Shown: one piece after another, positions 7,090 to 62,415 of the stretch
Numbering within the stretch: the first letter of the stretch is position 1
Layout of the letters: every line of letters begins with the position of its first letter
Source of the DNA: Rhodospirillaceae bacterium
GTDB lineage: Bacteria; Pseudomonadota; Alphaproteobacteria; UBA6615
DNA: 64,000 nucleotides
NCBI GenBank assembly: GCA_038117265.1
Contig: JAYOFO010000004.1
Coordinates: 18,816-82,815, forward strand
Direction: 5' to 3'
Notes under the pieces: model-generated
What the model was told of the DNA's origin: nothing
The model's database searches: none
The model's input: the letters and a program-made list of their open reading frames with translations, nothing else
Made by a program: the position numbers and the translations under genes

Positions 7090-7202
7090 ACCGGGCGAAA
7101 TTCCCGGCTGGCGGGCGGCGCGGCACCTTGCCGTTGCCGCCCGCGCTGTTTAGAAACGGGCAAATTTCACGCACACAATCCACGCATACGAGGACGAGTG
7201 AC

Positions 7203-8516: not shown

Positions 8517-8542
8517 CACGGCGCGCATTGCGCACGGACGGG

Positions 8543-8569
8543 AAGGGCGGCCCTCGGGCCGCCCTTTTG
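8543..8569. terminator. Bidirectional rho-independent terminator (hisD-like / acoC convergent)
   Basis: AAGGGCGGCCC-tcg-GGCCGCCCTTTT. Confidence 0.6.
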
Positions 8570-8576
8570 TCATCGG

Positions 8577-9698: not shown

Positions 9699-9700
9699 CG

Positions 9701-10705: not shown

Positions 10706-10718
10706 CGGTTCGCTCCGC

Positions 10719-11687
10719 TCAGTAGCTGACGTAGACGTCGGTGGTGAGGTCCGCTGCGGAAGGCGGGGGTGCGGCGCGTGCGGTCCTGACCGCATCGTCG
10801 ACCAGCTGGCGTGCCGCGGCCTGCACCTCGTCGAGCGCGGCCGCCTCGATCAGCCCGGCCTCGACCACGCGGGCCCGGAAGATGGCCAGGCAATCGTGTT
10901 CGGCGCGCAGCGCCTCGACCTCGCCCTTGGCGCGATAGGCCTGGGGGTCGCCCTGGAAGTGGCCGTAATAGCGCGGCGACAGCGCCTCGATGCCGGACGG
11001 GCCTTCGCCGTCGCGCGCCCGCGCGATGCAGGTGCGCATGGCGTCGTGCACCGCGAAGAAGTCGCGGCCGTCGACCTTCTCGACGGGCATGCCGAACCCG
11101 GCCGCGCGTGCGGCGATGTCACGAGAGCCGACCGCATAGTCCACGCCGGTGCCCTTGCCGATGTAGTTGTTCTCGAACACGAACACGACCGGCAGCTTCA
11201 GGACGACGGCCATGTTCATGGATTCGAAGACCGCGCCCTGGTTGGTCGCCCCGTCGCCGAAGAAACCGACGGCGACGCCGCCGGTCCCCAGGGTCTTCGC
11301 CGTCAGGGCGGCGCCGACGATGAGCGGTGCGCCGGCGCCCACGATCCCGTTCGCGCCGAGCATGCCCTTGTCGAGGTCGGCGATGTGCATCGACCCGCCC
11401 TTGCCGCCGCACAGGCCGCCCTTGCGGCCGAACAACTCGAGCATCATGCCCTCGACGTCGCAGCCCTTGGCGATGTAGTGCCCGTGTCCGCGATGGGTGC
11501 TGCCGATCACGTCGGTGTCGGAAAGATCGAGGCAGGCGCCCACCGCGATCGCCTCTTCGCCGGCATAGAGATGGACGAAGCCCGGCATATCTCCGGTCGC
11601 GAACTCGCTCGCGACGCGTTCCTCAAATTCGCGGATCGTCACCATGGAACGCCAGGCGGCGATCAAATCGTCGCGACCGATCTGCAT
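10719..11687 (-). CDS. acoA: TPP-dependent acetoin/2-oxoacid dehydrogenase E1 alpha subunit
   Basis: 322 aa; TPP-binding GDGATNQG ... NN motif. RBS AGGAGGAGAGC. Confidence 0.7.
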   Translation of the reverse strand: MQIGRDDLIAAWRSMVTIREFEERVASEFATGDMPGFVHLYAGEEAIAVGACLDLSDTDVIGSTHRGHGHYIAKGCDVEGMMLELFGRKGGLCGGKGGSMHIADLDKGMLGANGIVGAGAPLIVGAALTAKTLGTGGVAVGFFGDGATNQGAVFESMNMAVVLKLPVVFVFENNYIGKGTGVDYAVGSRDIAARAAGFGMPVEKVDGRDFFAVHDAMRTCIARARDGEGPSGIEALSPRYYGHFQGDPQAYRAKGEVEALRAEHDCLAIFRARVVEAGLIEAAALDEVQAAARQLVDDAVRTARAAPPPSAADLTTDVYVSY

Positions 11688-47234: not shown

Positions 47235-48293
47235 ATGAGCCCACGTGTCTTCATCGGATGGTTTGTCGTCACCTTTGCGACGGCTGCATTTGCGCTGGGG
47301 CTGGGCCTGAGCCGCGAAACCTCGACCTTCGACCCGCTCGAACGGGTGCCGGTGTTCGAGGCGCTGCGCGGCGACCCGGATTCGGTCGCGAAGGTGGATG
47401 TGCGCAGCCGGTTCGGTGAGTTCTCCATCGTGCGCGGCGGGTCGGGCTGGGTGTCTCCCGATCGCAGCGACTATCCCGTCGACGAGGCGAGCGTGCGCCG
47501 GCTGATCGCCGGGCTCGCCGACATGCGCTACATCGAACGCAAGACCTCCAACCCCGAGCGTTTCGTGCGCCTCGAGGTCCAGGACATCGATGCGGAGCTT
47601 TCGGACTCGGCCCATGTGAAGGTGTCGAACGCCCAGGACGAGGTACTCGCCGACATCATCGTCGGCCGGCCGAGCGCACGTTTCTTCGACGGCCGGGTCA
47701 GTGGCACCTACATCCGCGAGCCGGGCACCAACAATGTCTGGCTGGTCAGCGGCGTGACCAACGTCCAGACACGGCTGGTCCCCTGGCTCGATCGGAAGAT
47801 CGTCGAAATCCCGGCAAACAGTGTCGCGCGCGTGTCCGTCGGCAGCGGCGAGGGGGCCTACACGCTGTCTCGCGCCTCCGCCGACGAGGAGGAGTTCGCG
47901 ATCGAGGGGGCGCCCGAAGGGCGCGCGCTCGATCCCTCGAAGGCGACGTCGGTCAGCCGGGCGCTGGCCAATGTCGAGCTCGAGGACGTGAAGCCGCGGT
48001 CCGAGCAGTCCCTTCCGGCCGATGCGCAGGTTGCCGAGGCCACGACGTTCGACGGGCTGACGGTGCGGATGCGGCTGGCGGAGGTCGACCGCAAGAAATG
48101 GGCGACCTTTGAGGCGGCCTACACCGGCGATGCCGGCGACGAGTCCGACGAGGCCAAGTTGGCCCGCGCCATAGCGGATGCGATCAACGCGCGGGTCGGG
48201 AACTGGGTCTACTGGCTACCCAGCAGCACCTACACGAACCTGACGCGCCCGCTCGACGACGTGCTCGCCCCCAACGGGGACGGCAGCTCGTAG
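47235..48293 (+). CDS. DUF4340 domain protein
   Basis: 352 aa; N-terminal TM; DUF4340 typically follows GldG-like genes. RBS GAGGGGGG. Confidence 0.55.
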   Translation: MSPRVFIGWFVVTFATAAFALGLGLSRETSTFDPLERVPVFEALRGDPDSVAKVDVRSRFGEFSIVRGGSGWVSPDRSDYPVDEASVRRLIAGLADMRYIERKTSNPERFVRLEVQDIDAELSDSAHVKVSNAQDEVLADIIVGRPSARFFDGRVSGTYIREPGTNNVWLVSGVTNVQTRLVPWLDRKIVEIPANSVARVSVGSGEGAYTLSRASADEEEFAIEGAPEGRALDPSKATSVSRALANVELEDVKPRSEQSLPADAQVAEATTFDGLTVRMRLAEVDRKKWATFEAAYTGDAGDESDEAKLARAIADAINARVGNWVYWLPSSTYTNLTRPLDDVLAPNGDGSS

Positions 48294-48323
48294 ACGCCGC
48301 ACGACGAACGGTTATCATGCGTT

Positions 48324-48358
48324 CGGCCCGCGGGGACTCCGCGGGCCGTTCGTTTCTG
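48324..48358 (+). terminator. Rho-independent terminator after the ABC operon
   Basis: CGGCCCGCGGGG-act-CCGCGGGCCG followed by TTCGTTTCT. Confidence 0.55.
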
Positions 48359-48375
48359 CGAGACGGGAGGCCGGG

Positions 48376-49167
48376 ATGGATCTGGGGCTGGACGGAAAGC
48401 GCGCGCTGGTGACGGGCGCGAGCAAGGGGATCGGGCGCGCGATCGCGACGGCGCTTGCGGCGGAGGGCGCGCGCGTGGTTATCGCGAGCCGCGACGGCGA
48501 TGCCTGCGCGCGCACGGCGGCTGAGATCGCCGGCGCCCATGGGGCCGACGTCTCCGCCACGGCATGCGACATGGGTGATCTGGCGGCCGTCGACCGGCTG
48601 GCCGACTTCGCACACAGCACGCTCGGCGGCGTCGATATTCTCGTGAACAACACCGGCGGGCCGCCCTTCGGGCCGGTCAGCCAGGTCGACACCGAGACGT
48701 GGCGGCAGCATTTCGAGGCGATGTTCCTTAGCGTCGCGCGGCTGACCGGGCGTGTCCTGCCGGCGATGCGCGCGCAGGGATGGGGGCGGGTGCTGCTGGT
48801 GACCTCGACCGGGGTGGTCGAGCCGATCCCGCAGCTCGGCATCTCCAACGCGCTGCGGATCGGCCTGACGAACTGGGCCAAGACCCTGTCACTCGAGGTC
48901 GCGCGCGATGGCGTGACGGTGAACGCGCTGATGCCCGGGCGGATCGACACCGACCGGATGCGCCAGCTCTATGAAGTCACCGCCGAGGCCCGCGGAGTCG
49001 ATGCCGAGACGGTCCGCGCCGAGGTTGCGGACGCGATCCCCATGGGGCGGGTCGGAAATCCGGCGGAGTTCGGGGCCGTGGCGGCGTTTCTGGCCGGCGC
49101 GCCGGCTTCCTACGTCACCGGGACGACCATTGCGATCGACGGCGGGCTGACCCGGCGCAGCGTCTAA
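48376..49167 (+). CDS. SDR family oxidoreductase
   Basis: 263 aa; TGASKGIGRA, NNTG motifs. Confidence 0.75.
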   Translation: MDLGLDGKRALVTGASKGIGRAIATALAAEGARVVIASRDGDACARTAAEIAGAHGADVSATACDMGDLAAVDRLADFAHSTLGGVDILVNNTGGPPFGPVSQVDTETWRQHFEAMFLSVARLTGRVLPAMRAQGWGRVLLVTSTGVVEPIPQLGISNALRIGLTNWAKTLSLEVARDGVTVNALMPGRIDTDRMRQLYEVTAEARGVDAETVRAEVADAIPMGRVGNPAEFGAVAAFLAGAPASYVTGTTIAIDGGLTRRSV

Positions 49168-49228
49168 GGCGTCTATGAAACAGTTTCTTGAGGATTGTGC
49201 CGTTATTGCATCGGCTTCGCGGCAACCG

Positions 49229-49402
49229 TTAACGTGTGCCGCAACTGTAGGCCTTGCCGAACTCCTTCTGGCGATAGAAGGAGGCACCCTCGTTCACCGT
49301 GCATTGCGGCTGGGTCTGTGCGCCTGTGGGCGCGATGGGGCCGGCCAGAACCCCGGCGGCGGCGAGCAGGAAGGCGCTTGCGTGGCGGGAAATCGGGTTC
49401 AT
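49229..49402 (-). CDS. Possible small secreted Cys-containing peptide (57 aa), translationally coupled to the gene upstream
   Basis: MNPISRHASAFLLAAAGVLAGPIAPTGAQTQPQCTVNEGASFYRQKEFGKAYSCGTR. Its ATG overlaps the upstream stop as ATGA. It is below the ORF-track size cutoff. Confidence 0.3.
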   Translation of the reverse strand: MNPISRHASAFLLAAAGVLAGPIAPTGAQTQPQCTVNEGASFYRQKEFGKAYSCGTR

Positions 49403-51045
49403 CGCTCTATCTTTGCCCCGCTTCGCGCGAGTTCCTCCAGCGCGGCCGGCGAGTCCACGTCGAGCAGCACGCTGTCATCGTCCATGGGCACCTCGTGGAC
49501 GACATCGGCATTGTCGCCGATCAGATGCTTCGCGCCGACATCGCCGCTCAGGTGCGACATCTCGTCGAAGAACTGGCTGTCCCAGAGGACCGGGTTGCCG
49601 CGCTTGCCGTTCCAGGTGGGCACGCAGATCGCGCGCCCGGCATCGGGGTCGAACGCGGCCATCAGCTTGTGCAAATGTGCCGGGCCGACGCGCGGCATGT
49701 CGCCCAGCGCGATGAGCGCGCCCTCGCAGGTCTCGGGCAGGGCGGCGAGGCCCACGCGCAGCGACGTGCTCAGCCCGTCCTCATAGTCGGGATTGTGGAC
49801 CACGACCGCATCGCCGCCGACCGCGTCTGCGACACGCTCGGCCTCGTGGCCCGTGACCACGACGACCGGGGATGCGCCCGACTGTGCGACGGCATCGATG
49901 GCGCGCCGGATCATCGGCTTGCCGTCGACACGGATCAGCAGCTTGTTTTCGGCTCCCATGCGCCGGGATTGGCCCGCCGCGAGAATCACGGCCGCGAAAC
50001 GCGGCGCGCGCGGCGCGTCGACCCGGTCGCGCGGTGCGGCCTTCATGCGTGGCAGGGGGCGCGAGGGTATTTCCTTCAACAGGCCGCCGACGCCCATCCC
50101 CATGATGTGGGCGCTTTCGACCTCGATGCCGGCGAGCATGCGCTCGAGCAAGATGTCGTTGCCGCCGACACGCGGGGAACGCGCCGAGCCGGGCAGGGCG
50201 AGGACCGGAATGCCCCCGAGGTCGGCCAGCGCGGTGAGGTTGCCCGGGTCGACCGGCATGCCGAAGTGCCGGACGGTGCCCTTCGCTGCCTCGATGCCCG
50301 CGGGCACCACGTCGCGCCGGTCGGTGGTCGCCGAGGCGCCGACGACGAGGATGATTTCGGCGCCGGCGTCGCGCGCCGCGCCGAGCGCATGCGCGATGGC
50401 CTCCGGCGTGTGCGCAACGGTGTCGGAGCGTCCCAGGGTGCTGCCCAGGGCCTCGACGCGGGCCCGGATCACGCCCTCGGTCTTGGCGATCAGCCGCGGG
50501 GCGAGACCCGGCAACGTCGTCTGCACCAGCGCGAACCGGCGGTGCCGGTAGGGCAGGACCGAGACAAGTCCGCTGCCCACAACGCGCGCGGCGGCCTCGG
50601 CCTGTGCGAGTCGTGCCTCGCCGACCGCGAAGGGGATGATCTTCACCGTTGCGACGACCTGTCCGGCCTCCACCCGGTCGAGCGGGTGCAGGGTCGACAT
50701 GGTGATCCCTTCGTCGACGGCGTTCACGCGATCGATCGCGGCGGGATCGATGCGCACGATACCGTCATGGGCCGCGAACAGGTTGACCCGGCCGGTGCCG
50801 GCGATGCCGGTTCCCACGCCGTCGCCCGTCGCGGCCTCGGCCAGGCGGCGTGCGGCATCGTTCTCGCCGACATCGTCGGCCTCGATGATGGCCACGGTGA
50901 CCGTCTCGACCCCGTCGGCGATAAGCTGGCCGACGTCATCGTCGGAAAGGATCCGCCCCTTCCGGTACTTGCGGCCCCCCAGCGTCTGGCCGTGCACCAG
51001 AAGTGCGCCAGCGGCCTCGCTCACCGGTACGGGTCCGAACCTCAT
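49399..51045 (-). CDS. Molybdopterin-binding domain / MocA-like molybdenum cofactor cytidylyltransferase fusion protein
   Basis: 548 aa from MRFGPVPVSE; N-terminal MoCF-biosynthesis domain, C-terminal NTP-transferase (AAVILAAGQSRRMGAENKLL). The track ORF 49399..52023 is a read-through frame. Confidence 0.65.
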   Translation of the reverse strand: MRFGPVPVSEAAGALLVHGQTLGGRKYRKGRILSDDDVGQLIADGVETVTVAIIEADDVGENDAARRLAEAATGDGVGTGIAGTGRVNLFAAHDGIVRIDPAAIDRVNAVDEGITMSTLHPLDRVEAGQVVATVKIIPFAVGEARLAQAEAAARVVGSGLVSVLPYRHRRFALVQTTLPGLAPRLIAKTEGVIRARVEALGSTLGRSDTVAHTPEAIAHALGAARDAGAEIILVVGASATTDRRDVVPAGIEAAKGTVRHFGMPVDPGNLTALADLGGIPVLALPGSARSPRVGGNDILLERMLAGIEVESAHIMGMGVGGLLKEIPSRPLPRMKAAPRDRVDAPRAPRFAAVILAAGQSRRMGAENKLLIRVDGKPMIRRAIDAVAQSGASPVVVVTGHEAERVADAVGGDAVVVHNPDYEDGLSTSLRVGLAALPETCEGALIALGDMPRVGPAHLHKLMAAFDPDAGRAICVPTWNGKRGNPVLWDSQFFDEMSHLSGDVGAKHLIGDNADVVHEVPMDDDSVLLDVDSPAALEELARSGAKIER

Positions 51046-51734
51046 TCGCCGTGCAGGACCTGCGTGATCTGCGCCATGATCGAGATGGCAATTTCTGCAG
51101 GGCTCTTTGCGTTGATGGCGAGGCCGACAGGCGAGTGGATGCGCGCGATCTCTTCGTCCGTGTAGCAGGCCTCCATGAGGCGCTCGACACGGCCGGCATG
51201 GGTGCGCCGGCTGCCCAGCGATCCGATGTAGAAGGCATCGGACCGCAGTGCGACGTGGAGCGCGGGGTCGTCCAGCTTGGGGTCGTGGGTCAGGGTGACG
51301 ACCGCGGTTCGCGCATCGATGCCCAGCGTGCTCAGCGCATCGTCGGGCCAGTCCTCGCTCAGGGTGACATCGGGAAACCGGTCGCGGGTGGCGAAGGCGC
51401 CGCGGGGGTCGACGATCACGACCTCGTATCCCGACGTCTGTGCTAGCAGGACGAGCGGCTGGGCGATGTGGACGGCGCCGACGACGATCAGTCGTTTCGG
51501 CGGGTTGAACACCTGCACGAACAGCGAGGCGTCGGTGTCGTGTACGCGCCCCGACTTGTCGTCGCGGATCGCGGCACGGGCCGCATCCAGCGTGGCGTCG
51601 TCGAGCGCCAGCGCGCCTTCGGCCCGGTCGGTGTAGACGAGGGCCTGTTCGCCGGATTCCAGGTTCGAGACCAGCGCCACCGGCTGCTTGGCTTCGCGTG
51701 CGGCGAGCAGGGCTTGGAGGGTTTCGGGGCGCAT
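51042..51734 (-). CDS. XdhC/CoxI family protein, Rossmann-like C-terminal domain
   Basis: 230 aa; LIVVGAVHIAQ Rossmann motif. Stop overlaps the downstream start (ATGA). Confidence 0.65.
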   Translation of the reverse strand: MRPETLQALLAAREAKQPVALVSNLESGEQALVYTDRAEGALALDDATLDAARAAIRDDKSGRVHDTDASLFVQVFNPPKRLIVVGAVHIAQPLVLLAQTSGYEVVIVDPRGAFATRDRFPDVTLSEDWPDDALSTLGIDARTAVVTLTHDPKLDDPALHVALRSDAFYIGSLGSRRTHAGRVERLMEACYTDEEIARIHSPVGLAINAKSPAEIAISIMAQITQVLHGE

Positions 51735-51740
51735 GTCGGG

Positions 51741-52088
51741 TCAGTCGATCCGCTCGACCCAGACCTCGACCTTGCCACCGCAGGCGAGGCCGACTTCCCA
51801 GGCCATTTCGTCGGACACGCCGAAGTCGAGCAGGCGCGGCTTGCCGTCCTTCATCACCTCGCGGGCCTCGTGGACGACGGCACCCTCGATGCAGCCGCCC
51901 GAGACCGAGCCGATCATGTTGCCGTCCTCGTCGATGGCGAGCTGGCTGCCGACGGGACGGGGCGAGGAGCCCCAGGTGCTGACGACCGTCGCCAGGGCGA
52001 CGTTGCGACCGCCTTGCCGCCATGCGGCGGCCTGTTCGACGATGTCGTCATGGTCGAGGGTCTGCAGGTTGATCGATGCTTCGCTCAT
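51741..52088 (-). CDS. XdhC/CoxI family N-terminal domain protein
   Basis: 115 aa from MSEASINLQ (GGAGG RBS); SVSGGCIEGAV motif. Confidence 0.6.
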   Translation of the reverse strand: MSEASINLQTLDHDDIVEQAAAWRQGGRNVALATVVSTWGSSPRPVGSQLAIDEDGNMIGSVSGGCIEGAVVHEAREVMKDGKPRLLDFGVSDEMAWEVGLACGGKVEVWVERID

Positions 52089-53392
52089 TCGGCTGCCTCC
52101 TGCCACTTGCGCGCCACCTTGGCCCGTTCCGGGGCCGGTTTCGACAGCGACGCGGCCAACTGTTCCAGGCTTTCCAGGTTGTGGATCGAACGGAACTCGT
52201 CGACGTGCGGCAGGATCGACCGAGCGCCGAGCGACTTCGGTTCGTAACGATCATAACGTAGGAGCGGGTTCAGCCAGATCAAGCGGCGGCATGACATGTG
52301 CAAGCGCTCGATCTCGCCCTCCAGCCCGTCCGCGGCGTCGCGGTCGAGGCCGTCGGTGATCATCAGGACCACCGCACCCTGGCCGAGCACGCGACGCGAC
52401 CATTGCGTGTTGAAGTCGTGCAGCGAATGGCCGATCCGGGTGCCGCCCGACCAGTCGTCGACCGCTTCGACCACCTTGTCCAGCGCCTCGTCGACATCCT
52501 TGTAGCGCAGCTGGCGGGTGACGTTGGTCAGCTGCGTGCCGAACAGGAAGGTGTGGACCCGGTCGCGGTCGTTCGTGACGGCGTGCATGAAGTGCAGCAT
52601 CATGCGCGAATAGCGGCTCATCGAGCCCGAGATGTCGCACAGCACGACCAGGGGCGGGGGGCGCCGCTTGCGCTTGCGGTACTGCAGCGGGATCGAGGCG
52701 CCGCCGCCGCGCATCGCCGCGCGCAGGGTGGCCCGCATGTCGATCCGCCGGCCGCGCTTGTCGCGGCGGAACCGGCGGGTCGGCATCTCGTCGATAGGCA
52801 GGCGCATGCGCGCGATAGCTCGCTTAGCCGCCTCGACCTCCTCGCGCGACATCTTCTCGAAGTCGGTCTTCTGCAAAACCTCGTTGGCCGACCAGGTCAT
52901 CACCGCATCGACGGTGATCTCGGGGTCTTCCTCGTCCTCGCCGTCGCCCTGGCCCGGCATCTCCGAGCGGTCCTGCTGCAGCGCCTCGGCCAGCCGGCGG
53001 TTCATTTCCTCGGCCTGCTGCTGGGCGTCGGGGTCGACGAAGGAGGGCAGGACCAGAGAGGCCATTCGCTCGAGCAGCTTGGGATTCCGCCAGAAGACGT
53101 GGAACGCCTGGTCGAAGATTTCACGCTGGTCGCGCCGGTTCACGAACACGGCGTGGAGCGTCCAGTAGAAATCGTCGCGGTTGCCGATGCCCACCGTCTC
53201 GACGGCGTTGATGGCCTCGATCACCCGTCCTGGCCCCACCGGCAGGCCCGCAGCGCGCAGCACGCGCGCGAAATGCATGATGTTCGTGGCGATCCGGCCC
53301 TCGTCGCCCGCGCGGGCCTCGGGAATCTCGTCGAGCGCCGTCCTGGCCCGGATCGCCGGGCGGGCCTCGTCGGGGATCGCCTTCTCGGACAC
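52085..53392 (-). CDS. coxE: VWA domain protein (CoxE-like)
   Basis: 435 aa; C-terminal VWA with a MIDAS motif (VVLCDISGSMS context). GTG start 9 nt after the moxR stop. Confidence 0.6.
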   Translation of the reverse strand: MSEKAIPDEARPAIRARTALDEIPEARAGDEGRIATNIMHFARVLRAAGLPVGPGRVIEAINAVETVGIGNRDDFYWTLHAVFVNRRDQREIFDQAFHVFWRNPKLLERMASLVLPSFVDPDAQQQAEEMNRRLAEALQQDRSEMPGQGDGEDEEDPEITVDAVMTWSANEVLQKTDFEKMSREEVEAAKRAIARMRLPIDEMPTRRFRRDKRGRRIDMRATLRAAMRGGGASIPLQYRKRKRRPPPLVVLCDISGSMSRYSRMMLHFMHAVTNDRDRVHTFLFGTQLTNVTRQLRYKDVDEALDKVVEAVDDWSGGTRIGHSLHDFNTQWSRRVLGQGAVVLMITDGLDRDAADGLEGEIERLHMSCRRLIWLNPLLRYDRYEPKSLGARSILPHVDEFRSIHNLESLEQLAASLSKPAPERAKVARKWQEAAE

Positions 53393-53401
53393 CGCGGCGT
53401 C

Positions 53402-54328
53402 CTAGCTCGTCGCCGTCTGCGCCAACGCGACCTCGCTCTTGACCTGATCGAGGATGCGTGCGGCCTCGCTGCCGCGGATCTTGGCGATGTCGTCCTGGTA
53501 CTTGAGCAGCACGCCCAGCGTGTCGTCGATCGCCTCGGGCGTGAGTTCGATTATGTCGAGCTGGTGCAGCGCCGAGGCCCAGTCGATCGTCTCGGCGATG
53601 CCCGGCAGCTTGAACAGGTCCATCTCGCGCAGCTTCTGGACGAATTCGACGACCTGGCACGACAGCCTCGCGCCGGCCTGGGGCGCCTTGATCGCCAGGA
53701 TTTCCAGCTCGCGCACGGCATCGGGATAGTCGACCCAGTAATAGAAGCAGCGGCGCTTCAGCGCGTCGTGAATCTCGCGCGTGCGGTTCGAGGTGATGAC
53801 GACGATCGGCGGCTTGTCGGCGCGGATCGTGCCGATCTCGGGGATCGTGATCTGGAAGTCCGACAGCACCTCCAGCAGGTAGGCCTCGAACGCCTCGTCG
53901 GTGCGGTCGAGCTCGTCGATCAGCAGCACGGGCGGGCCGTCGGCGGACGGGTCGAGCGCCTGCAGCAGGGGGCGGTGGATCAGGAACCGGTTGGAGAAGA
54001 TGTCGTCGCCCAGGCGCTCGCGGTCGGCGACGCCCTCGGCCTCGGCCATGCGGATCTCGATCATCTGGGCCGAATAGTTCCACTCGTACACGGCGGACGC
54101 CACATCGAGGCCCTCGTAACACTGCAGGCGCACCAGCCGGCGGCCCAGCGTGTCGGCCAGCACCTTGGCGATCTCGGTCTTCCCGACACCGGCCTCGCCC
54201 TCGAGGAAGAGGGGGCGTCCGAGCTGCAGCGACAGGTAGACCGCCGTCGCCAGGCTGCGGTCGGAGACGTAGTTGCCGTCGGCAAGCAGCTCCAGGGTGC
54301 TTTCGACGTTCTCAGGAAGACTGGTCAA
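53402..54328 (-). CDS. coxD: MoxR-like AAA+ ATPase (CoxD-like)
   Basis: 308 aa; Walker A GEAGVGKT, Walker B LLIDELDR. TTG start. Confidence 0.7.
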   Translation of the reverse strand: MTSLPENVESTLELLADGNYVSDRSLATAVYLSLQLGRPLFLEGEAGVGKTEIAKVLADTLGRRLVRLQCYEGLDVASAVYEWNYSAQMIEIRMAEAEGVADRERLGDDIFSNRFLIHRPLLQALDPSADGPPVLLIDELDRTDEAFEAYLLEVLSDFQITIPEIGTIRADKPPIVVITSNRTREIHDALKRRCFYYWVDYPDAVRELEILAIKAPQAGARLSCQVVEFVQKLREMDLFKLPGIAETIDWASALHQLDIIELTPEAIDDTLGVLLKYQDDIAKIRGSEAARILDQVKSEVALAQTATS

Positions 54329-54504
54329 GGGAATTTCTCACCCGCGTTGCGGCGCGAACGAACGGTTCGCCCATGAATTGAAGGTATTCCGATGTTCGGG
54401 GTCTGACGTTGATATAGCTCAGGGACCGCATTCGTCCAACCCGACCAAGCAAGACGGCCGGGGCGGGGCCCCGGCCGTCGCGCCAGTATATACGGCGATT
54501 GGGA

Positions 54505-55302
54505 TCAGCCGGCAGCGGCAACCGCGCGGCTCGCCATCACCGAGATGAGGTGCGCGCGATAGTCTGCGGAGGCATGGATGTCGGCGTTGAGACCGTCGGC
54601 CGACATCTTCACGCCCTTGGCGGCATCGGCGCTCCAGTTGCCCGACAGCGCGCTCTCGATCTCGGCGGCGCGGAACACGCCGTCCTGGCCGGCGCCGGTC
54701 ACCGCGACGCGGATCTCGCCACCGGTCTGCGCGACCATCACGCCCACCAGCGCATAGCGCGAGGCGGGGTTCGGGAACTTGGTGTAGGCCGCCTTGCCGG
54801 GGACGGGGAAGCGGACCGCGGTGATCAGCTCACCTTCCTCGAGCGTGGTGGTGAACATGCCGTCGAAATAATCGTCGGCGGCGATCTCGCGCTTGTTCGT
54901 GATCACCGTAGCGTTCAGGCCGAGCACTGCGGCCGGATAGTCGGCGGCCGGGTCGTTGTTGGCCAGCGAACCGCCGATGGTGCCGCGGTTGCGCACCTGG
55001 GGATCGCCGATATGGCTGGCGAGGCTGGCGAGCGCCGGGATCTTGCTCTGGACCACAGGCGAATTCGCCACGTCGACGTGGCGGGTCATCGCCTTGATGG
55101 TGACGCTGTCGCCGCCATCCTCGATGCCGACCAGGTCGCCGATGCCGGCGAGGTCGACGAGGTCCGAAGGCTGCGCGAGGCGCTGCTTCAGCGTCGGAAT
55201 CAGGGTCATGCCGCCGGCCAGGAACCGGCCGTCCTCGGACGAAGTCACGGCTTTGGCTGCAGCGTCGGCCGAACCCGCCTTCTGATAGTTGAACTGGTAC
55301 AT
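54505..55302 (-). CDS. coxM: CODH/xanthine dehydrogenase family FAD-binding medium subunit (CoxM-like)
   Basis: 265 aa; [18 protein letters not shown] motifs. RBS GGGAGG. Confidence 0.8.
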
Positions 55303-55324
55303 CGTCTACCTCCCTCGCCAGACG

Positions 55325-57703
55325 TTACTCCGCCGCCTGGCGGATCGTGGAACCGTTGATCGCCTGCCAAACCTTCTGCGGCGTGGCCGGCATTGAAATG
55401 TCTTCGACGCCGAGCGGCGCCAGTGCGTCGAGGATCGCGTTGATCACCGCTGGCGGCGAGCCGATGGCACCGACCTCGCCGACGCCCTTGACCTCGAGCG
55501 GGTTGGACGCGCCCATCACGCTCTTGGTCGAGGCCGCATAGCTCGGCACGTCGTCGGCCCGCGGCATGGTGTAGTCCATGTACGAGCCGGACAGGAGCTG
55601 TCCGTCGCTGTCGTAGACGCAGCCCTCGAGCAGCGCCTGGCCAATGCCCTGGGTCAGGCCGCCATGGACCTGTCCCTCGACGATCATCGGGTTGATGACG
55701 CGCCCGACATCGTCGACCGCCGTCATGCCCACGATCTCGACATCGCCCGTCTCGGGGTCGACCTCGACCTCGCAGATGTGACAGCCGCCGGGGAAGCTGA
55801 AGTTGAGCGGGTCGTAGAACGCGTTCTCGTCGAGCCCGGGCTCGATCTCCTCGATCGGGTAGTTGTGGGGCACATAGGCCGCCAGCGAGACCTCGCCGAA
55901 CGCCATCTCCTTGTCGGTGCCCGCGACGGTGAACTTGCCGTCTGCGAACTCGATGTCTGAGACGTCGGCCTCGAGGATGTGCGCCGCGATCTTCTTGGCC
56001 TTGTCGATGACCTTGTTACAGGCCTTGAGGATCGCCGGCCCCCCCACCGCGAGCGAACGCGAGCCGTAGGTGCCCATGCCGAACTGGACCTGGTCGGTGT
56101 CGCCGTGGCTGATCTCGACGTTCTCGATCGGGATGCCGAACGTGTCGGAGACGAGCTGGGCGAAAGTGGTCTCGTGGCCCTGGCCGTGGCTGTGGGTGCC
56201 CGTGTAGACGGTCACCGAGCCGGTCGGGTGCACGCGCACCTGCGCGGACTCATAGAGTCCTGCGCGGGCGCCCAGCGCCCCGGCGACGGCCGACGGCGCG
56301 ATGCCGCACGCCTCGATATAGGTAGAAATGCCGATGCCGCGCAGCTTGCCGACTTTCTCCGCCGCGGCACGTCGCTTCTCGAAGCCGGCATAGTCGGCGG
56401 CCTCGAGTGCGGCATCGAACGAGGCGGGATAGTCGCCGCAGTCGTACTGCAGCGCCACCGGCGTCTGGTAGGGGAACTGGTCCGGCTGGATCATGTTCCG
56501 CTTGCGCAGCTCGACGGGGTCGATGCCCGTCTCGCGCGCCGCCTTGGCGACGAGGCGTTCGAGCAGGTAGGTGCATTCGGGGCGCCCGGCGCCGCGATAG
56601 GCGTCGACAGGCACGGTGTTGGTGAACACCGTCTGCACCTCGGCATAGATCGCGGGCGTCTGGTACACGCCGGCGAGCAGGGTCGCGTAGAGGTAAGTCG
56701 GCACGCTCGACCCGAACGTCGAGAGATAGGCGCCGATGTTAGCCTTGGTCGCGACACGCAGGCCGATGAACTTGCCGTCGGCGTCGAGCGCGAGCTCGGC
56801 GTGGCTCTCATGGTCGCGGCCGTGGGCGTCGGTCATGAAGGATTCCGAACGCTCCGCCGTCCACTTGATCGGGCGGTTCACCTTGGCCGCGGCCCAGGTG
56901 AGGATCGCCTCCTCGGCGTAGTGGAAGATCTTCGAGCCGAAGCCGCCGCCGACATCGGGCGCGACGACGCGCAGCTTGTGCTCGGGAATCTGCAGCACGA
57001 ACGCGCCCATCAGCAGCCGGATGACGTGCGGGTTCTGGCTGGTGGTGTAGAGCGTGTGGCGGCCCGACGTGCGGTCGTAGTCCGAGATCGCCGCGCGCGG
57101 CTCCATCGCGTTGGGGATCAGGCGGTTGTTGACCAGGTCGATCGAGACGATTGTCGCGGCGTTCGCGAAGGCGGCGTCGGTGGCCTCCTTGTCGCCGATC
57201 TCCCAGTCGAAGCAGCGATTGTTGGGGACGTCGTCATGGACGAGGGTCCCGCCTGCCAGCGCCGCGTCCATGTCGATGACGGCGGGCAGCACATCGTAGT
57301 CGACGGCGATCAGTTCGGCGGCGTCGCGCGCCTGGCCGCGGGTCTCGGCGATGACGATGGCGACCTGGTCGCCGACGTGACGCACCTTGTCGACGGCCAG
57401 CGGCGGGTGGCCCGGCTCGAGCATCGGCGAGCCGTCCTTGTTGTGGATCTGCCAGCCGCAGGGCAGGCCGCCAACCCCGTCAGCGGCCATGTCGGCGCCG
57501 GTCAGCACGGCCAGCACGCCGTCGGCGGCGCGCGCCTTCGAGGTGTCGACCTTCGCCAGCTTCGCGTGCGCGTGCGGCGACCGCAGAATCCAGGCGTGGG
57601 CCTGGCCCGGCCGGTTGATGTCGTCGGTGTAGTTGCCGTTCCCCGTCAGGAACCGCCGGTCCTCAACGCGCCTGACGGGAGCTCCGATACCGGTGGCCGT
57701 CAT
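55325..57703 (-). CDS. coxL: Molybdopterin-binding large subunit, form II CODH-like (AYRGAGR active-site loop)
   Basis: 792 aa; [11 protein letters not shown] (form II, not the form I AYxCSFR). RBS GAAGGGATAA. Confidence 0.8.
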
Positions 57704-57707
57704 GACG

Positions 57708-58175
57708 TTATCCCTTCAGGGCTTGTGCGCCGGCCAGGATGGACTTGACGATATTGTGGTAGCCGGTGCAGCGGCAGAGGTTGCCCTCGAGCCACTCGCG
57801 AACATCTTTCTCGCTCGGATCGGAGTTCTTCTTCACCAGATCGAGCGCGCTCATTACCATGCCCGGAGTGCAGAAGCCGCACTGCAGGCCGTGGTTCTCG
57901 CGGAAGGCCTCCTGCATCGGGTGCAGGGTGTCGCCGTCGGCCAGGCCCTCGATCGAGGTGACGTCGGCTCCTTCGTTCTGCATCGCCAACGTCGTGCACG
58001 ACTTCACGGACTCGCCGTTCACATGCACCACGCACGCGCCGCACTGGCTGGTGTCGCAGCCGACATGGGTACCGGTCAGCCCCAGATGTTCGCGAAGATA
58101 CTGAACGAGCAAGGTCCTCGGCTCGACATCAGCCGAGACGGACTTTCCGTTCACCGTCATGGACACGGTGGGCAT
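57708..58175 (-). CDS. coxS: (2Fe-2S)-binding small subunit (CoxS-like)
   Basis: 155 aa; CDTSQCGAC and CGFCTPG...CRCTGY. RBS GGGAGGAG. Confidence 0.85.
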
Positions 58176-58332
58176 TACGCTCCTCCCTGCTTCGGGTTGC
58201 CCCGTTAAATGCGGCCCGGTGCGCCGGAATTCGGGCGCACCGAACCTGTTGATTACAGAACCCGAGTTTCATCCGCCCCGCGCCTTGCGTCAAGGCGCTG
58301 CGCGGCGAAAACCTCCGTTTGCGACGAAATTC

Positions 58333-58938
58333 CTAGGACACGAGCGCCGCGATGACGACGATGGCGACGATCGCGCCGACGATCCAGGTGCCGACGCCGA
58401 CCTGGGCCAGGGCGCGGGTGTCGCCGGCCGTCGGAGCGGGTGCGGCGGCCGGCGCGGCGGGTGCCGGTTCGCCGGTCGGGGCCTCGGCCGCGCCGCCATC
58501 CTGTTCGACGGCCGCGGCGAAGTTCTCGAAGAACTGCGAGGCCATCTTCTTGGCTGTGCCGTCGATCAGGCGTGCGCCGAGCTGGGCGAGCTTGCCGCCG
58601 ACCTGGGCATCGACCTCGTACTTCAGGATGGTCGCGCCGCCATCGTCTTCGAGGCGGACATTGGCGCCGCCCTTGGCAAACCCAGCCGCGCCGCCCTTGC
58701 CCTCGCCGGAGATGCGGTAGCCGTTGGGTGCATCGATGTCGGTCAGTTGGACAGCGCCCGCGAACTTCGCCTTCACCGGGCCGACCTTGGCCGTGACCTT
58801 CGCCTCGAACGAGGTGTCGGAGGTCTGCTCGATCTCGTCGCATCCGGGGATCGACTGCTTGAGGACGTCGGGATCGTTGAGTGCGGCCCACACCTTCTCG
58901 CGCGGGGCTTCGATCCTGTATTCGCCGGTCATTTCCAT
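58333..58938 (-). CDS. coxG: CoxG-like SRPBCC family protein with a C-terminal membrane anchor
   Basis: 201 aa; SRPBCC fold N-terminal region, Ala/Pro linker, C-terminal TM helix. Confidence 0.6.
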   Translation of the reverse strand: MEMTGEYRIEAPREKVWAALNDPDVLKQSIPGCDEIEQTSDTSFEAKVTAKVGPVKAKFAGAVQLTDIDAPNGYRISGEGKGGAAGFAKGGANVRLEDDGGATILKYEVDAQVGGKLAQLGARLIDGTAKKMASQFFENFAAAVEQDGGAAEAPTGEPAPAAPAAAPAPTAGDTRALAQVGVGTWIVGAIVAIVVIAALVS

Positions 58939-59020
58939 GGCGATGGTCCTTCTGACGCTTGGGCTGGAGATGGCCGGAAAATAGACCCCGCCCGGCGGCG
59001 GGACAAGCCGTGTCTAGGGG

Positions 59021-60229
59021 TTATCGGCGCGATATTCGGCGCCCCGCGACCCGGTTCACGCAGACCGCGCCGGCGAACGAGCCGGCACCGATGGTCGCGA
59101 AGGCGAGGAACCAGGCGAGCCCCGACGCCTGGCCGCCGGAACTGTCCAGCACGAACCCGACGGCAAGCGGGCCGAGCAGGGCGGCGGAGAATCCGAACAG
59201 CGAGTGCACGGCAAGGGTCAGGCCGCGATAACCCGCCGCCGCCTGCTGGACCGCGCCCGCGGTCAGCGAGCCCGAATCTCCCATCACGAGGCCGCTGTAG
59301 ACGAAGAAGACCACGACGACGACCGCAAACGGCAGGCCGGGTGTGAGCCCCATGACGAGCGCGGCCGCGAACGAGGACAGCATGGCGAACGTCACGACGC
59401 GCCGGCGCCCGTATCGCTCGCACAATTCGTTGCCGACGAGGCTGGCGCCGACCGCAGCGAGGTTTGCCGCCGCCGCCACGAGCGCGGCGTCGGCCGTCGC
59501 GGTGCCGGCGCTGCGTTCCGAGGCGAAGACGAGGAAGGCGACGATCCATCCGCGCAGCGCGAACAGCTCCCAGGAATGCCCGGCATAGCCGAGCACATAG
59601 GCCATGGCCGGCCGGTTGCACAGGACGGGCCGGATGTCGAACATCGCCGTCGGCGGGCGTTCCTCGGGCAGGGGTGCGCGGGACCGGAGGAGGGCGCGTG
59701 CCAGCACGGCGGCAAGCAGGGGGCCGAATGCGGCGGCTCCGAACGCCGCGGGCCAGCCGAACGCCGTTCCGACCAGGCCGTTCAGGCCGAACGACACGCC
59801 GGCACCGACCGAGAAGCCCGCAGTATAGGTTGCAACGCCGCGCGAGGGCACGGGATGCGGCAGCCGGTCGGTCAGTACCTTGAGACCGGTCATGTAGGTG
59901 CCGCCCACGCCCGCACCCTGCACCGCGTTCCAGGCCATCGCCGACCAGAAGCCGTCGGCAAGCGCGGCGAAGCCGGCGAGGCCCGCGGCCGAGACGAACA
60001 GGCTGGCGATGTAGATGCGCCGCGAATCCACCCGATCGGTCCAGGGCACCAGGATCGCGACCGCTGCGACGTAGCCGGCAAAGTAGATGCCGCTGATCCA
60101 GCCGGCTTCCGTGTTCGTCAGCGCCCATTCCGCCTGCAGGGGAAGAAGCAGCGCGGGGAAGGCGGCGAACCCGGTCATGCTCGCGATATGGGCGACGAAC
60201 ATGGTGGCGATGGTGGCGGCCGGCGACAT
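59021..60229 (-). CDS. MFS transporter
   Basis: 402 aa from MSPAATIATMF; 12 predicted TM helices. Confidence 0.65.
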   Translation of the reverse strand: MSPAATIATMFVAHIASMTGFAAFPALLLPLQAEWALTNTEAGWISGIYFAGYVAAVAILVPWTDRVDSRRIYIASLFVSAAGLAGFAALADGFWSAMAWNAVQGAGVGGTYMTGLKVLTDRLPHPVPSRGVATYTAGFSVGAGVSFGLNGLVGTAFGWPAAFGAAAFGPLLAAVLARALLRSRAPLPEERPPTAMFDIRPVLCNRPAMAYVLGYAGHSWELFALRGWIVAFLVFASERSAGTATADAALVAAAANLAAVGASLVGNELCERYGRRRVVTFAMLSSFAAALVMGLTPGLPFAVVVVVFFVYSGLVMGDSGSLTAGAVQQAAAGYRGLTLAVHSLFGFSAALLGPLAVGFVLDSSGGQASGLAWFLAFATIGAGSFAGAVCVNRVAGRRISRR

Positions 60230-60276
60230 GCCGGCGGTTATATCGCCGTGGCCGCGCCGGCGGTTGCGAAATCGGC

Positions 60277-62415
60277 TCAGGCGGTGCCGGCGCGGCGGCG
60301 CGACCAGACGAACAGCGCGATGAACACGGCCAGTCCGCCCAGGTGGACGGCAAGGTCCGTCGGCCAGAGCAGGGCCGCACCGGCCGCCAAAGCGACGGCG
60401 CGCAAGGGCCAGTTGAGCGGTCCCTCGAGGTGGCCCTGCATCGCCGCAGAGAAGGCATAGAGGCCGAATACGCCGAACGCGAAGATCGTCAGCACCTGAT
60501 CGACCGGCCCGCCGAGGAACGGCGTGTAGGCGATCAGCAGGGGCACGATGTAGAGGCCCTTGGCGATCTTCCACGAGGTGAACCCGGTCGCCATCGGCGG
60601 CGTTCGCGCGATGGCCGCCGCCGCAAAGGCCGCGAGGCAGACGGGTGGGGTGACGTTGCTGTCCTGCGACAGCCAGAACACGATCATGTGCGCCGACAGC
60701 AGCGCCAGCACCAGGGTCTCGGGCGAAAGGATCTGTTCGCGCACGATGGGGGTGAGGTCGGCGGGAATCATCGCAGCCAGCGCGCGCGCCTGTTCCAGCG
60801 GCATTGCCGATCCGAGCGGGGCCACGCTGTCGGGCGCAACCAGCAGGAAGATCGCCTTGGCGCCCTCGGGCACGTTGCCGGCGGCGATCGCCTGGACGAG
60901 TTCCATGTTCGAGATCATGTCCGACAGCGCGGGCGCCGAGACCGACGCCAGCATGATGTAGGCGGCGGTCACGGGCAGCCCCATGCCCAGCACGAGCGAG
61001 GCGATGGCCACGAGCACGATCGCGATCAGCAGGTTGCTGCCCGCCCACTGGGAAATCATGATCGAGAAGGTGTTGCCGATGCCCGTGGTCGCCACGACGT
61101 TGACGACCAGGCCGATGGTGACCAGCAGGACGCCGATCGAGACCATGTTGCGCGCGCCCAGCGCCAGCGCCTCGACGATGGCGCGCGGCCCCATCCGGTT
61201 GGGGGTCAGCCACGAGGCGCCGACGACGGCGAGGATCGCATAGCCGGCCGCGAAGGTGGGGGTGAAGCCCTCGATCAGCAGCACGATCAGCAGCGCGATG
61301 GGCAGGATGAAGGCGATGCCGCCGCGCTTCAGCACGTCGGCGATGGCCGGCACCTCGAGCTCGCCGCCGAGGTTCTGGCGCTTCGCCTCGATCCGCACAT
61401 AGAAGCCGACCGACAGGAAATACAGCACCGCCGGCAGGAAGCTGACGGCAATGATCTGGGTGTAGGAGATGCCGGTGAAGTTGGCCATCACGAAGGCCCC
61501 GGCTCCCATGATCGGGGGCATGAGCTGCCCGCCGGTCGATGCCGAGGCCTCGACCCCGGCGGCGAAGCGGGCGGGGAAACCGGCGCCCTTCATCAACGGG
61601 ATGGTCACCGAACCGGTCGAGGCGGTATTGCCGACGGCCGACCCCGAGATGGTGCCTGTCAGGCCCGAGGCGAAGACGGCGACGAGGCCGGGGCCGCCGG
61701 CGAACCGGCCGACCGCGGCGCGCGCCATGTCGATGATGATCGCGCTCGCGCCCGAGCGCACCAGGAAGGCCGCGAACAGGATGAACATGAACACGACGGT
61801 CGAGGAGATGCGCGCGATGATGCCGAACATGCCCTCGTCGTTGAAGATCGAGCGGAACAGGACGGTCTCGGGCGCCAGGCCGGAGAAACGGAACGTGCCG
61901 CCGATCCACGCGCCCCACCAGATCACATAGGTCAGCGCGACGACGATCAGGATCGGGATGATCCAGCCGGTCGTCCGGCGGGTCAGTTCCAGGGCGCCGA
62001 CGATGCACACGATGCCCGCCGTGATCTCCAGCGGCGTCATCCGCACGCCGCGGTCGTAGATCGCGTTCTCCTGGGAGATCAGGAAGATCGCGGACGCGGC
62101 CACCGCCAGGCCGAGCAGGATGTCGAGGACCAGGACGATGCGTGCCGCGGCAGCATTGCGCGCCGCGAACATCGGATAGATGACCGCGCACAGGAATCCG
62201 AGGCCGGCCAGGTGCCAGGCCGTCTGCCACAGCGTGTCGAGGGTGCCGAGCGTATTGAAGTAGAGGTGCGCGATCGAAACCGCCACCGCGAGCGCACCGA
62301 TGGCGACGGCGGGTGCGCCCGTCAACGTCCTTGTGTGGGTCTGGACCTCGCCGACGTCGCCGCCCGTGGCCTCGGCGCGTGGCATTGCGTGATCAGGCTC
62401 TGACATGGTCCTCAT
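60277..62415 (-). CDS. TAXI-TRAP transporter fused permease (DctQ-DctM-like fusion)
   Basis: About 712 aa polytopic protein directly downstream of the TAXI binding protein. Start 62415, 62406 or 62385. Confidence 0.7.
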   Translation of the reverse strand: MRTMSEPDHAMPRAEATGGDVGEVQTHTRTLTGAPAVAIGALAVAVSIAHLYFNTLGTLDTLWQTAWHLAGLGFLCAVIYPMFAARNAAAARIVLVLDILLGLAVAASAIFLISQENAIYDRGVRMTPLEITAGIVCIVGALELTRRTTGWIIPILIVVALTYVIWWGAWIGGTFRFSGLAPETVLFRSIFNDEGMFGIIARISSTVVFMFILFAAFLVRSGASAIIIDMARAAVGRFAGGPGLVAVFASGLTGTISGSAVGNTASTGSVTIPLMKGAGFPARFAAGVEASASTGGQLMPPIMGAGAFVMANFTGISYTQIIAVSFLPAVLYFLSVGFYVRIEAKRQNLGGELEVPAIADVLKRGGIAFILPIALLIVLLIEGFTPTFAAGYAILAVVGASWLTPNRMGPRAIVEALALGARNMVSIGVLLVTIGLVVNVVATTGIGNTFSIMISQWAGSNLLIAIVLVAIASLVLGMGLPVTAAYIMLASVSAPALSDMISNMELVQAIAAGNVPEGAKAIFLLVAPDSVAPLGSAMPLEQARALAAMIPADLTPIVREQILSPETLVLALLSAHMIVFWLSQDSNVTPPVCLAAFAAAAIARTPPMATGFTSWKIAKGLYIVPLLIAYTPFLGGPVDQVLTIFAFGVFGLYAFSAAMQGHLEGPLNWPLRAVALAAGAALLWPTDLAVHLGGLAVFIALFVWSRRRAGTA

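Follow-up and report, generated by a model that had tools for sequence, protein, structure and literature searches.

The cox-like genes in the 64-kb window (the whole stretch of DNA analysed, 64,000 nucleotides) make up a form II molybdenum-hydroxylase cluster of a standard kind that is widely conserved among alphaproteobacteria. As a whole, the locus is very probably explained as a typical alphaproteobacterial form II CoxSLM cluster whose substrate is organic rather than CO, followed by a 57-aa ORF left over from a Sel1-repeat gene.

Gene content and the accessory module

Nine genes, all on the minus strand, run in the order coxG-coxS-coxL-coxM-coxD-coxE-xdhC(N)-xdhC(C)-MoCF/MocA fusion. ORF positions and Pfam domains bear out this order and the single strand, both of which had been given in the preliminary description, and all ten minus-strand ORFs (these nine and the 57-aa ORF) were confirmed in place.

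58333..58938, minus strand: coxG, SRPBCC/CoxG protein, 201 aa (PF06240 COXG, E 8.7e-39)
57708..58175, minus strand: coxS, [2Fe-2S] small subunit, 155 aa (PF01799 Fer2_2, E 2e-33, and PF00111 Fer2)
55325..57703, minus strand: coxL, molybdopterin-binding large subunit, 792 aa, form II type (PF01315 Ald_Xan_dh_C, PF02738 MoCoBD_1 and PF20256 MoCoBD_2)
54505..55302, minus strand: coxM, FAD-binding medium subunit, 265 aa (PF00941 FAD_binding_5, E 1.3e-45, and PF03450 CO_deh_flav_C)
53402..54328, minus strand: coxD, MoxR-type AAA+ ATPase (AAA_5), 308 aa, TTG start (PF07728/PF00004)
52085..53392, minus strand: coxE, VWA-domain protein, 435 aa, GTG start (PF05762 VWA_CoxE, E 8e-72)
51741..52088, minus strand: xdhC N-terminal half, a separate gene, 115 aa (PF02625 XdhC_CoxI alone, E 5.5e-29), its ATG overlapping the coxE stop (ATGA)
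51042..51734, minus strand: xdhC C-terminal Rossmann half, a separate gene, 230 aa (PF13478 XdhC_C alone, E 3.5e-43)
49399..51045, minus strand: MoCF/MocA fusion, 548 aa, its ATG overlapping the xdhC(C) stop

The coxD length matches the JGI call on a near-identical contig of the same organism (L085), and the product of coxG, a gene also found in relatives, has an Ala/Pro-rich linker followed by a C-terminal hydrophobic helix. The same gene order, with split XdhC and fusion, was found in dozens of alphaproteobacterial genomes and is identical in many, for example in Oceanibaculum, Azospirillum, Parvibaculum and Arenibaculum. CoxL homologues of 62-75% identity occur in the same order with an adjoining accessory module in Azospirillum, Parvibaculum, Variibacter and Microvirga, and Sinorhizobium meliloti carries a depositor-annotated coxD-coxE-xdhC-xdhC-mocA module detached from coxSLM. 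The preliminary description had singled out three features as remarkable, namely the two-gene XdhC, the fusion of MoCF with MocA and the ATGA couplings, but all of them are the conserved default of the module in many alphaproteobacterial genomes, so they need not be flagged again elsewhere.

Both XdhC domains score above their Pfam cut-offs, though on two adjacent polypeptides, and 73 of 75 related loci likewise encode XdhC in two parts; the top NCBIfam model for the halves, XdhC_rel_AOR, stayed below its cut-off. The two genes meet at TGA-CCCGAC-ATG, with 6 nt between stop and start and no change of frame. That this TGA is read through or recoded into one full-length XdhC is extremely improbable: the halves do share one frame, with the TGA plus two codons between them, both here and in the window's closest relatives, and one truly fused XdhC is known (in L017), but the C half starts with its own ATG, and the halves lie in different frames, mostly with an ATGA overlap, in 64 of the 73 split loci, so a fused XdhC cannot be a conserved requirement.

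The fusion comprises a beta-rich N-terminal region, a MogA/MoaB/CinA-like MoCF domain, a disordered linker (320-345) and a MocA-like cytidylyltransferase. The comparisons returned both a MogA/MoaB/CinA-type fold and a MobA-like NTP-transferase fold. In Pfam, NTP_transf_3 is clear and MoCF_biosynth (PF00994) scored 24.7 bits, just short of the 26.6 cut-off; a precomputed MoCF_biosynth match is present in many of the homologues, of which more than 7,900 are full-length. Against the MocA equivalog TIGR03310 the fusion scored 154.6 bits (cut-off 186.45). The two XdhC domains and the MobA-like cytidylyltransferase domain are shared with the XdhC/PaoD/CoxF/CoxI chaperones and with E. coli MocA and PucB, and xdhC-mocA linkage occurs in other operons (PMC2997495). 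In the window, by contrast, XdhC is two polypeptides and MocA follows a region of about 320 aa with a MogA/MoaB/CinA-like domain.

CoxSLM is a xanthine-oxidase-family hydroxylase/dehydrogenase with molybdenum-pterin CoxL, FAD CoxM and CoxS carrying two [2Fe-2S] clusters. By analogy with characterised families, the MocA domain of the fusion would convert the molybdenum cofactor to its cytosine-dinucleotide form, and the two-piece XdhC chaperone (N half and Rossmann half, from translationally coupled genes) would hold it and insert it into CoxL (PMC2997495). CoxD, the MoxR AAA+ ATPase, and its VWA partner CoxE may finish active-site maturation, that is, sulfuration; these roles were worked out on the form I enzyme, which contains Cu, and might not be the same in this cluster. 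CoxG would use its C-terminal helix as a tail anchor and connect the enzyme with the membrane quinone pool (PMC4240915 for CoxD/E/G; PMC12202499 for quinone extraction by CoxG).

CoxL and its likely substrate

The CoxL active site was aligned against form I enzymes and quinoline oxidoreductase.

56582..56602, minus strand: codons in coxL of the active-site loop AYRGAGR, residues 368-374

This loop and the coxS-coxL-coxM order uphold the form II assignment proposed earlier, within a classification into form I and form II that reportedly goes back to King and Weber in 2007; WP_011083168.1, WP_010909926.1 and WP_010970339.1 are reference examples of form II CoxL. In the loop alignment to 8UEM, 1FFU and 1N5W, a check that the preliminary description had proposed, GAG stands where form I has CSF, with two 1-residue gaps. 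The form I loops read AYACSFR or AYRCSFR, and that of quinoline oxidoreductase reads AYRGVGF. The copper-ligand Cys loop of form I CO dehydrogenases (CODHs) and the form I one-residue insertions are absent from CoxL, and the catalytic-Glu region KGVGE is kept. CoxL scored 667 bits against the aerobic CODH equivalog TIGR02416 (cut-off 991) and 609 against NF040766 (cut-off 950), and CoxS, CoxL, CoxM and both XdhC halves all lie under every substrate-defined NCBIfam cut-off. The top models for the structural subunits were those of archaeal glyceraldehyde dehydrogenase alpha/beta/gamma (NF041018/19/20), again below threshold (score/cut-off 673/790, 218/350 and 232/290 bits for the three subunits).

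The Cys-less loop, which the form I loop exceeds by two residues, and the CODH score support the earlier suspicion that CO is not the substrate, and CO appears unlikely as the physiological one. It is improbable that the enzyme is a genuine, perhaps low-affinity aerobic CO dehydrogenase, as first proposed for form II cox genes: the nearest PDB entries are form I CODHs (8UEM 628, 1FFU 548 and 1N5W 532 bits, then quinoline 2-oxidoreductase), coxD, coxE and coxG are present as in CO-oxidiser clusters, and older work summarised in PMC7645674 credits form II carriers with CO oxidation, but both the loop and the two equivalog scores speak against it. Since CoxL has no copper-binding cysteine loop, hydroxylation of an organic substrate is most likely, the aldehyde or N-heteroaromatic type being a guess drawn solely from the sub-threshold family scores and the loop likeness to quinoline oxidoreductase.

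Among known systems, the form II coxSLM clusters of Bradyrhizobium, Mesorhizobium, Sinorhizobium, Aminobacter and Ruegeria share the S-L-M order, AYRGAGR, coxD/coxE/coxG and the open substrate question; we see no substantive difference from them, the window representing a marine uncultured lineage whose best genome relatives have 88% CoxL identity. Form I Mo-Cu CODHs (Oligotropha carboxidovorans CoxMSL, Mycobacterium smegmatis 8UEM) have the same three-subunit architecture, CoxD/E/G-type accessory genes and, among solved structures, the top sequence similarity. The window enzyme, however, lacks the AY(R/A)CSFR loop with its Cu-ligand Cys and stays below the equivalog cut-offs; its genes are ordered S-L-M, not M-S-L, and its XdhC-type factor comes in two pieces. 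Quinoline 2-oxidoreductase (1T3Q) and 6-hydroxypseudooxynicotine dehydrogenase (7DQX) are likewise MCD-type XO-family heterotrimers with equal loop length (AYRGVGF in Qor), but CoxL is less similar to them (487 and 441 bits, against 628 for 8UEM), and we found no catabolic genes for N-heterocycles near the cluster.

The function of form II enzymes is still described as unresolved (PMC13240472, PMC13203968, PMC6794299). CoxSLM and the five-gene coxD-coxE-xdhC(N)-xdhC(C)-MoCF/MocA module might serve an ecologically widespread, yet-to-be-found substrate by means of the two-polypeptide XdhC and a cofactor-channelling MoCF-MocA fusion, a reading that we regard as rather doubtful; if true, the window would be one more example of an open problem and not a new system. 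The window makes the general question of what form II 'CO dehydrogenases' oxidise no more testable.

Junctions and transcription units

ATGA stop/start overlaps lie at 52085-52088, 51042-51045 and 49399-49402. The preliminary description had called the three consecutive; all exist, but the 6-nt XdhC spacer separates the first two. At these junctions NTGA overlaps are the majority in related loci (32 of 61, 43 of 74 and 55 of 76, respectively), and on L085 there are 7 adjacent same-strand junctions with a 4-nt overlap, three of them inside an Mrp operon. The 4-nt overlaps of the cluster do not exceed the local norm. The cluster is also not one tight unit, given gaps of 157 nt (coxG-coxS) and 176 nt (coxM-coxD), which contain the following:

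58280..58298, minus strand: promoter-like motif GCGCCTTGACGCAAGGCGC in the coxG-coxS gap, containing TTGACG, palindromic and unique in the window
54454..54478, minus strand: GC-rich, terminator- or attenuator-like hairpin just past the coxM stop, its 11-bp stem kept in 8 relatives
54409..54421, minus strand: TG.GCTATATCAA motif, promoter -10-like, ahead of coxD, conserved and unique in the window

In alignment, the core GCCTTGACG of the coxG-coxS gap motif is unchanged in 5 relatives, one stem pair of the coxM-coxD hairpin varies G-C/G-U/A-U among relatives, and GCTATATC ahead of coxD is invariant in 8. A consensus scan for a sigma-70 promoter found none. With boundaries drawn from conservation alone, the cluster is probably transcribed as two or three units, namely coxG, coxSLM up to the conserved hairpin, and coxDE-xdhC-xdhC-mocA from the conserved promoter-like motif.

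The 57-aa ORF downstream of mocA

49229..49402, minus strand: 57-aa ORF whose ATG overlaps the fusion-gene stop, very probably what is left of the 5' part of a truncated gene for a secreted Sel1-repeat protein

The ORF, read from 49402 to 49229, translates as MNPISRHASAFLLAAAGVLAGPIAPTGAQTQPQCTVNEGASFYRQKEFGKAYSCGTR. The preliminary description had taken it for a possible secreted two-Cys peptide coupled to mocA; the ORF, the ATGA overlap, the signal-like N-terminus and the two Cys all stand, but not the stand-alone peptide gene. Judged by homology, it comes from a 131-133-aa Sel1-repeat gene that is intact in relatives, of which it retains the signal peptide and one half of repeat 1. Four of these (L087-L090) carry a 131-132-aa Sel1 gene starting 4 nt before the mocA stop. 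BLASTP against the L090 protein gave 46% identity (E 3e-13), and hhalign against an 18-member family profile gave 97.9% probability (E 5e-13). When the whole window was searched by tblastn with the full Sel1 protein, the sole match covered residues 6-53 (49372-49241, E 3e-9); the rest of the gene, beyond residue 53, was not found in the 64 kb. Compared with the intact Sel1-like (PF08238) secreted proteins that follow mocA in related marine alphaproteobacterial MAGs, residues 11-54 of the ORF match 6-53, and the mocA overlap and both Cys, which are family-conserved positions, are kept, but residues 55-132, with all complete repeats, are gone. Within the aligned stretch the family has 15 invariant positions, and the ORF departs from four of them (R36, V39, N46 and F51). 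DNA homology ends directly after the Cys54 codon, with a stop three codons on; a rearrangement very probably deleted everything past codon 54 and brought in a convergent SDR gene at a distance of 61 nt. Pfam returned no hit for the ORF, which lacks a complete Sel1 repeat and so is a fragment of the family, not a member.

A functional small secreted disulfide-bonded peptide, translationally coupled to the mocA fusion, is quite improbable. The ATG is intact within the ATGA overlap, the N-terminus is signal-peptide-like with two Cys behind it, GC content is highest at third positions of the ORF's own frame (GC3 0.79, against 0.60/0.57 at positions 1/2), and the JGI pipeline called the ORF as a gene on L085; but a search of 1.84 billion representatives returned only the ORF itself besides low-complexity hits, the match stops midway through the first Sel1 repeat, invariant residues are replaced, and the ORF is absent from the closest sequence-distinct relative (93% CoxL), with L002 holding a 66-aa remnant that decayed in a different way and L001 having none. 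There is next to no likelihood that GC-rich intergenic DNA produced this frame by chance: the window does hold 57 ATG-ORFs of 50-70 aa, 35% of them with equal or higher GC3, but the position-matched Sel1 homology already refutes this reading, and the 4-nt mocA overlap is identical to that of the intact genes. As a Sel1-gene remnant, the ORF may still retain leftover translation or even function.

The 57-aa ORF is thus a clean case of a remnant that keeps start, signal peptide and overlap coupling. A remnant of this kind can readily pass for a micropeptide gene, and even searching exhaustively with the single sequence does not reveal what it is. Little is gained from this one locus by itself; what it shows is that the oddities flagged in it are usual for form II cox clusters.

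Gene content of the cluster and identity of CoxL

Ten ORFs occupy the minus strand at 49229-58938, with the coordinates of the preliminary description unchanged. Pfam and NCBIfam searches upheld every cox, xdhC and mocA assignment, confirming the domains of a nine-gene cluster on one strand.

Domain content of the cluster products, in gene order, and the small ORF
CoxG, minus strand: PF06240
CoxS, minus strand: Fer2/Fer2_2
CoxL, minus strand: Ald_Xan_dh_C, MoCoBD_1 and MoCoBD_2
CoxM, minus strand: FAD_binding_5 and CO_deh_flav_C
CoxD, minus strand: MoxR-type AAA+
CoxE, minus strand: VWA_CoxE
xdhC(N) product, 115 aa, minus strand: XdhC_CoxI domain only
xdhC(C) product, 230 aa, minus strand: XdhC_C Rossmann domain only
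MoCF/MocA fusion protein (gene mocA), 548 aa, minus strand: clear MobA-like NTP-transferase domain at residues 352-512
Small ORF of 57 aa, 49402-49229, minus strand: no Pfam or NCBIfam match

The fusion protein also has a sub-threshold MoCF_biosynth match at residues 192-299, and the C-terminal part of CoxG consists of an Ala/Pro-rich linker followed by a hydrophobic helix, consistent with membrane tethering. The accessory roles of XdhC and MocA (PMC2997495) and of CoxD, CoxE and CoxG (PMC4240915 and PMC12202499) are presumed here from family membership. An MFS transporter gene (59021 to about 60230) lies directly upstream of coxG, and the same gene precedes coxG in a relative with 93% CoxL identity; a near-identical contig of the same organism carries a TRAP transporter and an Mrp antiporter operon farther upstream.

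The motif AYRGAGR occupies CoxL residues 368-374 (56602-56582). Among solved structures, CoxL is nearest by sequence to the form I CO dehydrogenase (CODH) 8UEM (628 bits), followed by the form I enzymes 1FFU (548 bits) and 1N5W (532 bits), quinoline 2-oxidoreductase 1T3Q (487 bits) and 6-hydroxypseudooxynicotine dehydrogenase 7DQX (441 bits). In a residue-level alignment, the form I loops AYACSFR/AYRCSFR are two residues longer than the loop of this CoxL and include the Cu-ligand Cys. An 11-residue stretch of this CoxL lines up gap-free with AYRGVGF of quinoline oxidoreductase; the KGVGE catalytic-Glu region is conserved. Against NCBIfam, CoxL scored 667 bits with the aerobic CODH equivalog (cut-off 991) and 673 with the archaeal glyceraldehyde dehydrogenase alpha model (cut-off 790), and CoxM, CoxS and both XdhC halves reached no substrate-defined cut-off. 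The literature through 2026 continues to treat the function of form II enzymes as unresolved (PMC13240472, PMC13203968, PMC6794299) and holds that their physiological substrate is probably not CO. Based on the loop alignment, the sub-cut-off scores and this literature, we read CoxSLM as a typical form II molybdenum hydroxylase that probably acts on an organic substrate. The Cys-less loop and the scores bear out the earlier assignment to form II, with a substrate that is probably not CO.

Intergenic elements

The 176-nt gap between coxM and coxD contains an 11-bp GC hairpin (54478-54454, minus strand) directly 3' of coxM, which is kept in eight relatives. About 35 nt past this hairpin and ahead of coxD lies the invariant motif GCTATATC (54409-54421, minus strand), suggesting a terminator or attenuator combined with an internal promoter that divides the structural from the maturation genes. 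The 157-nt coxG-coxS gap holds the palindromic GCGCCTTGACGCAAGGCGC (58280-58298, minus strand), whose core, GCCTTGACG, does not vary among relatives; it may act as a -35 element or as a site for a regulator. The upstream MFS gene ends in a terminator-like hairpin (58985-59004, minus strand), the only relevant terminator-like match of a sigma-70 consensus scan in which no promoter-like site turned up; an Rfam scan of 48000-60500 gave no match. The cluster is probably not one single operon.

The ORF overlapping the end of mocA

The preliminary description had proposed a gene for a secreted two-Cys peptide at 49402-49229. The ORF is present, and on the near-identical contig it carries a gene call from the JGI pipeline. 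Searching the 80 related loci by tblastn at E 1e-5 found nothing, and an exhaustive phmmer search of 1.84 billion representatives returned only the ORF itself and long low-complexity proteins, a misleading negative, since so short a stretch of homology cannot stand out in so large a database. With relaxed settings, tblastn picked up a match of 17 residues just past mocA in one relative (L006), which led to a Sel1-repeat gene. Four contigs whose fusion-protein homologues are 64-66% identical to that of the window (L087-L090) each carry a Sel1-matching gene for 131-132 aa that starts 4 nt before the mocA stop. About 32 clusters make up this family, under the names 'TPR repeat protein' or 'tetratricopeptide repeat protein', and its complete members are all 129-133 aa long.

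The 57-aa ORF shares 46% identity with residues 6-53 of the L090 protein (BLASTP, E 3e-13) and matches an 18-member Sel1 profile with 97.9% probability (hhalign, E 5e-13); the match takes in the VHA/Q-type signal-peptidase site as well as the two Cys, positions that do not vary within this family. Searched against the whole 64-kb window, the full Sel1 protein had a sole match at 49372-49241 (E 3e-9), and residues 54-132 had no counterpart anywhere in the window. Homology at the DNA level ends directly after the Cys54 codon and is followed by three codons, TAA and, 61 nt on, the end of a convergent SDR gene. Within the aligned part, 4 of 15 family-invariant positions are changed (R36N, V39A, N46E and F51Y). 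The GC3 of the ORF is highest in its own frame, at 0.79 (0.84-0.94 in the cluster genes), which fits a sequence that once was coding. From these homologies the ORF appears to be a truncated 5' remnant of a Sel1-repeat gene, and the peptide gene was a misidentification; the homology searches gave no evidence for a conserved micropeptide, although the remnant may still be translated.

Among other loci, L002 retains a 66-aa Sel1 remnant that decayed differently, L001 has none, and in the 93%-CoxL relative the ORF is absent after mocA, which ends in GACTGA with a convergent gene 31 nt on. The Sel1 gene is frameshifted in L091 (5647-6047), and frameshifts break both the mocA and Sel1 frames in L006 (10053-12041); the cause is either faulty assembly or additional, independent decay of the Sel1 gene. 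A second Sel1-repeat paralogue (L087, 6517-7089; 180-190 aa in relatives, 36% identity) sits roughly 0.5 kb beyond the mocA-coupled copy, with TPR, guanylate-cyclase and SapC genes after it; all four are absent at the corresponding window position. A deletion in the window lineage probably took away Sel1 codons 55-132 together with the genes behind them, among which is also a flagellar-rod-like gene.

Different genes follow mocA in other alphaproteobacterial lineages. A protein of about 140 aa with the motif ...NP.CGD...GC.LC.A... is encoded directly after it, often with an ATGA/GTGA overlap, in L009, L019, L022, L029, L039, L043, L045, L064, L066, L072 and L079; by eye it looks like a putative NifU/SufU-type Fe-S scaffold. 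Stellaceae loci (L003, L005, L010, L025, L027, L028, L030 and L035) carry a conserved short hydrophobic ORF 30-90 nt past mocA, with a core of about 45 aa (MSTLIGGVTLASTLFGVLVGQIAAGAEFAGVVLASLV...).

Split XdhC, the fusion gene and overlapping junctions across relatives

Homologues of the fusion protein number at least 7,995, and all 120 among the matches listed are essentially full length; their source names are 'molybdopterin-binding/glycosyltransferase family 2 protein', 'NTP transferase domain-containing protein' or 'molybdenum cofactor cytidylyltransferase'. Scanning one genome per species confirmed 589 loci, and a set of 80 was retained. By tblastn of the window proteins against these 80, the order coxG-S-L-M-D-E-xdhC(N)-xdhC(C)-mocA recurs in many of them, including cultured Oceanibaculum pacificum and Parvibaculum sedimenti and an Arenibaculum MAG; Azospirillum soli, A. 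agricola and A. tabaci have the same order, but coxG was not found. XdhC is split in 73 of 75 related loci. One of the two non-split loci, L017, is a true fusion, and the apparent fusion in L062 was rejected as a frame artefact.

In Sinorhizobium meliloti (L093, CP090106.1, a 3.7-Mb record labelled pSymB), a coxD-coxE-xdhC(N)-xdhC(C)-mocA module spans 6208-11117, annotated as MoxR family ATPase, VWA domain-containing protein, two XdhC family proteins and NTP transferase domain-containing protein. A flavin reductase gene precedes it and a TfoX/Sxy gene follows; coxSLM is not adjacent, which suggests a stand-alone cofactor-maturation unit. A lone copy of the fusion gene on Azospirillum lipoferum 4B plasmid AZO_p3 (L092, 9501-11117) adjoins choline/betaine transport genes, with no xdhC or cox neighbours.

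Three consecutive ATGA junctions had also been reported. The overlaps exist but are not consecutive, as the junction of the XdhC halves, which lies between the first two, has no overlap and reads TGA-CCCGAC-ATG in one frame. Here (51735-51743, minus strand), as in the closest relatives, just the TGA and two codons part the in-frame halves; in most other genomes the halves overlap out of frame. Read-through of the TGA was rejected because in the majority of relatives the two halves do not share a frame. Most loci have an NTGA overlap at coxE/xdhC(N) (32 of 61 loci), at xdhC(N)/xdhC(C) (43 of 74) and at xdhC(C)/mocA (55 of 76). The same-organism contig has 4-nt overlaps at seven adjacent same-strand gene junctions; the unrelated Mrp operon accounts for three of these. 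The split xdhC and the MoCF/MocA fusion, which the preliminary description had singled out as notable, are present, but judging from the homologue and locus counts and the overlap majorities, split XdhC, fusion and ATGA overlaps all appear to be the conserved default of this cluster type in related loci.
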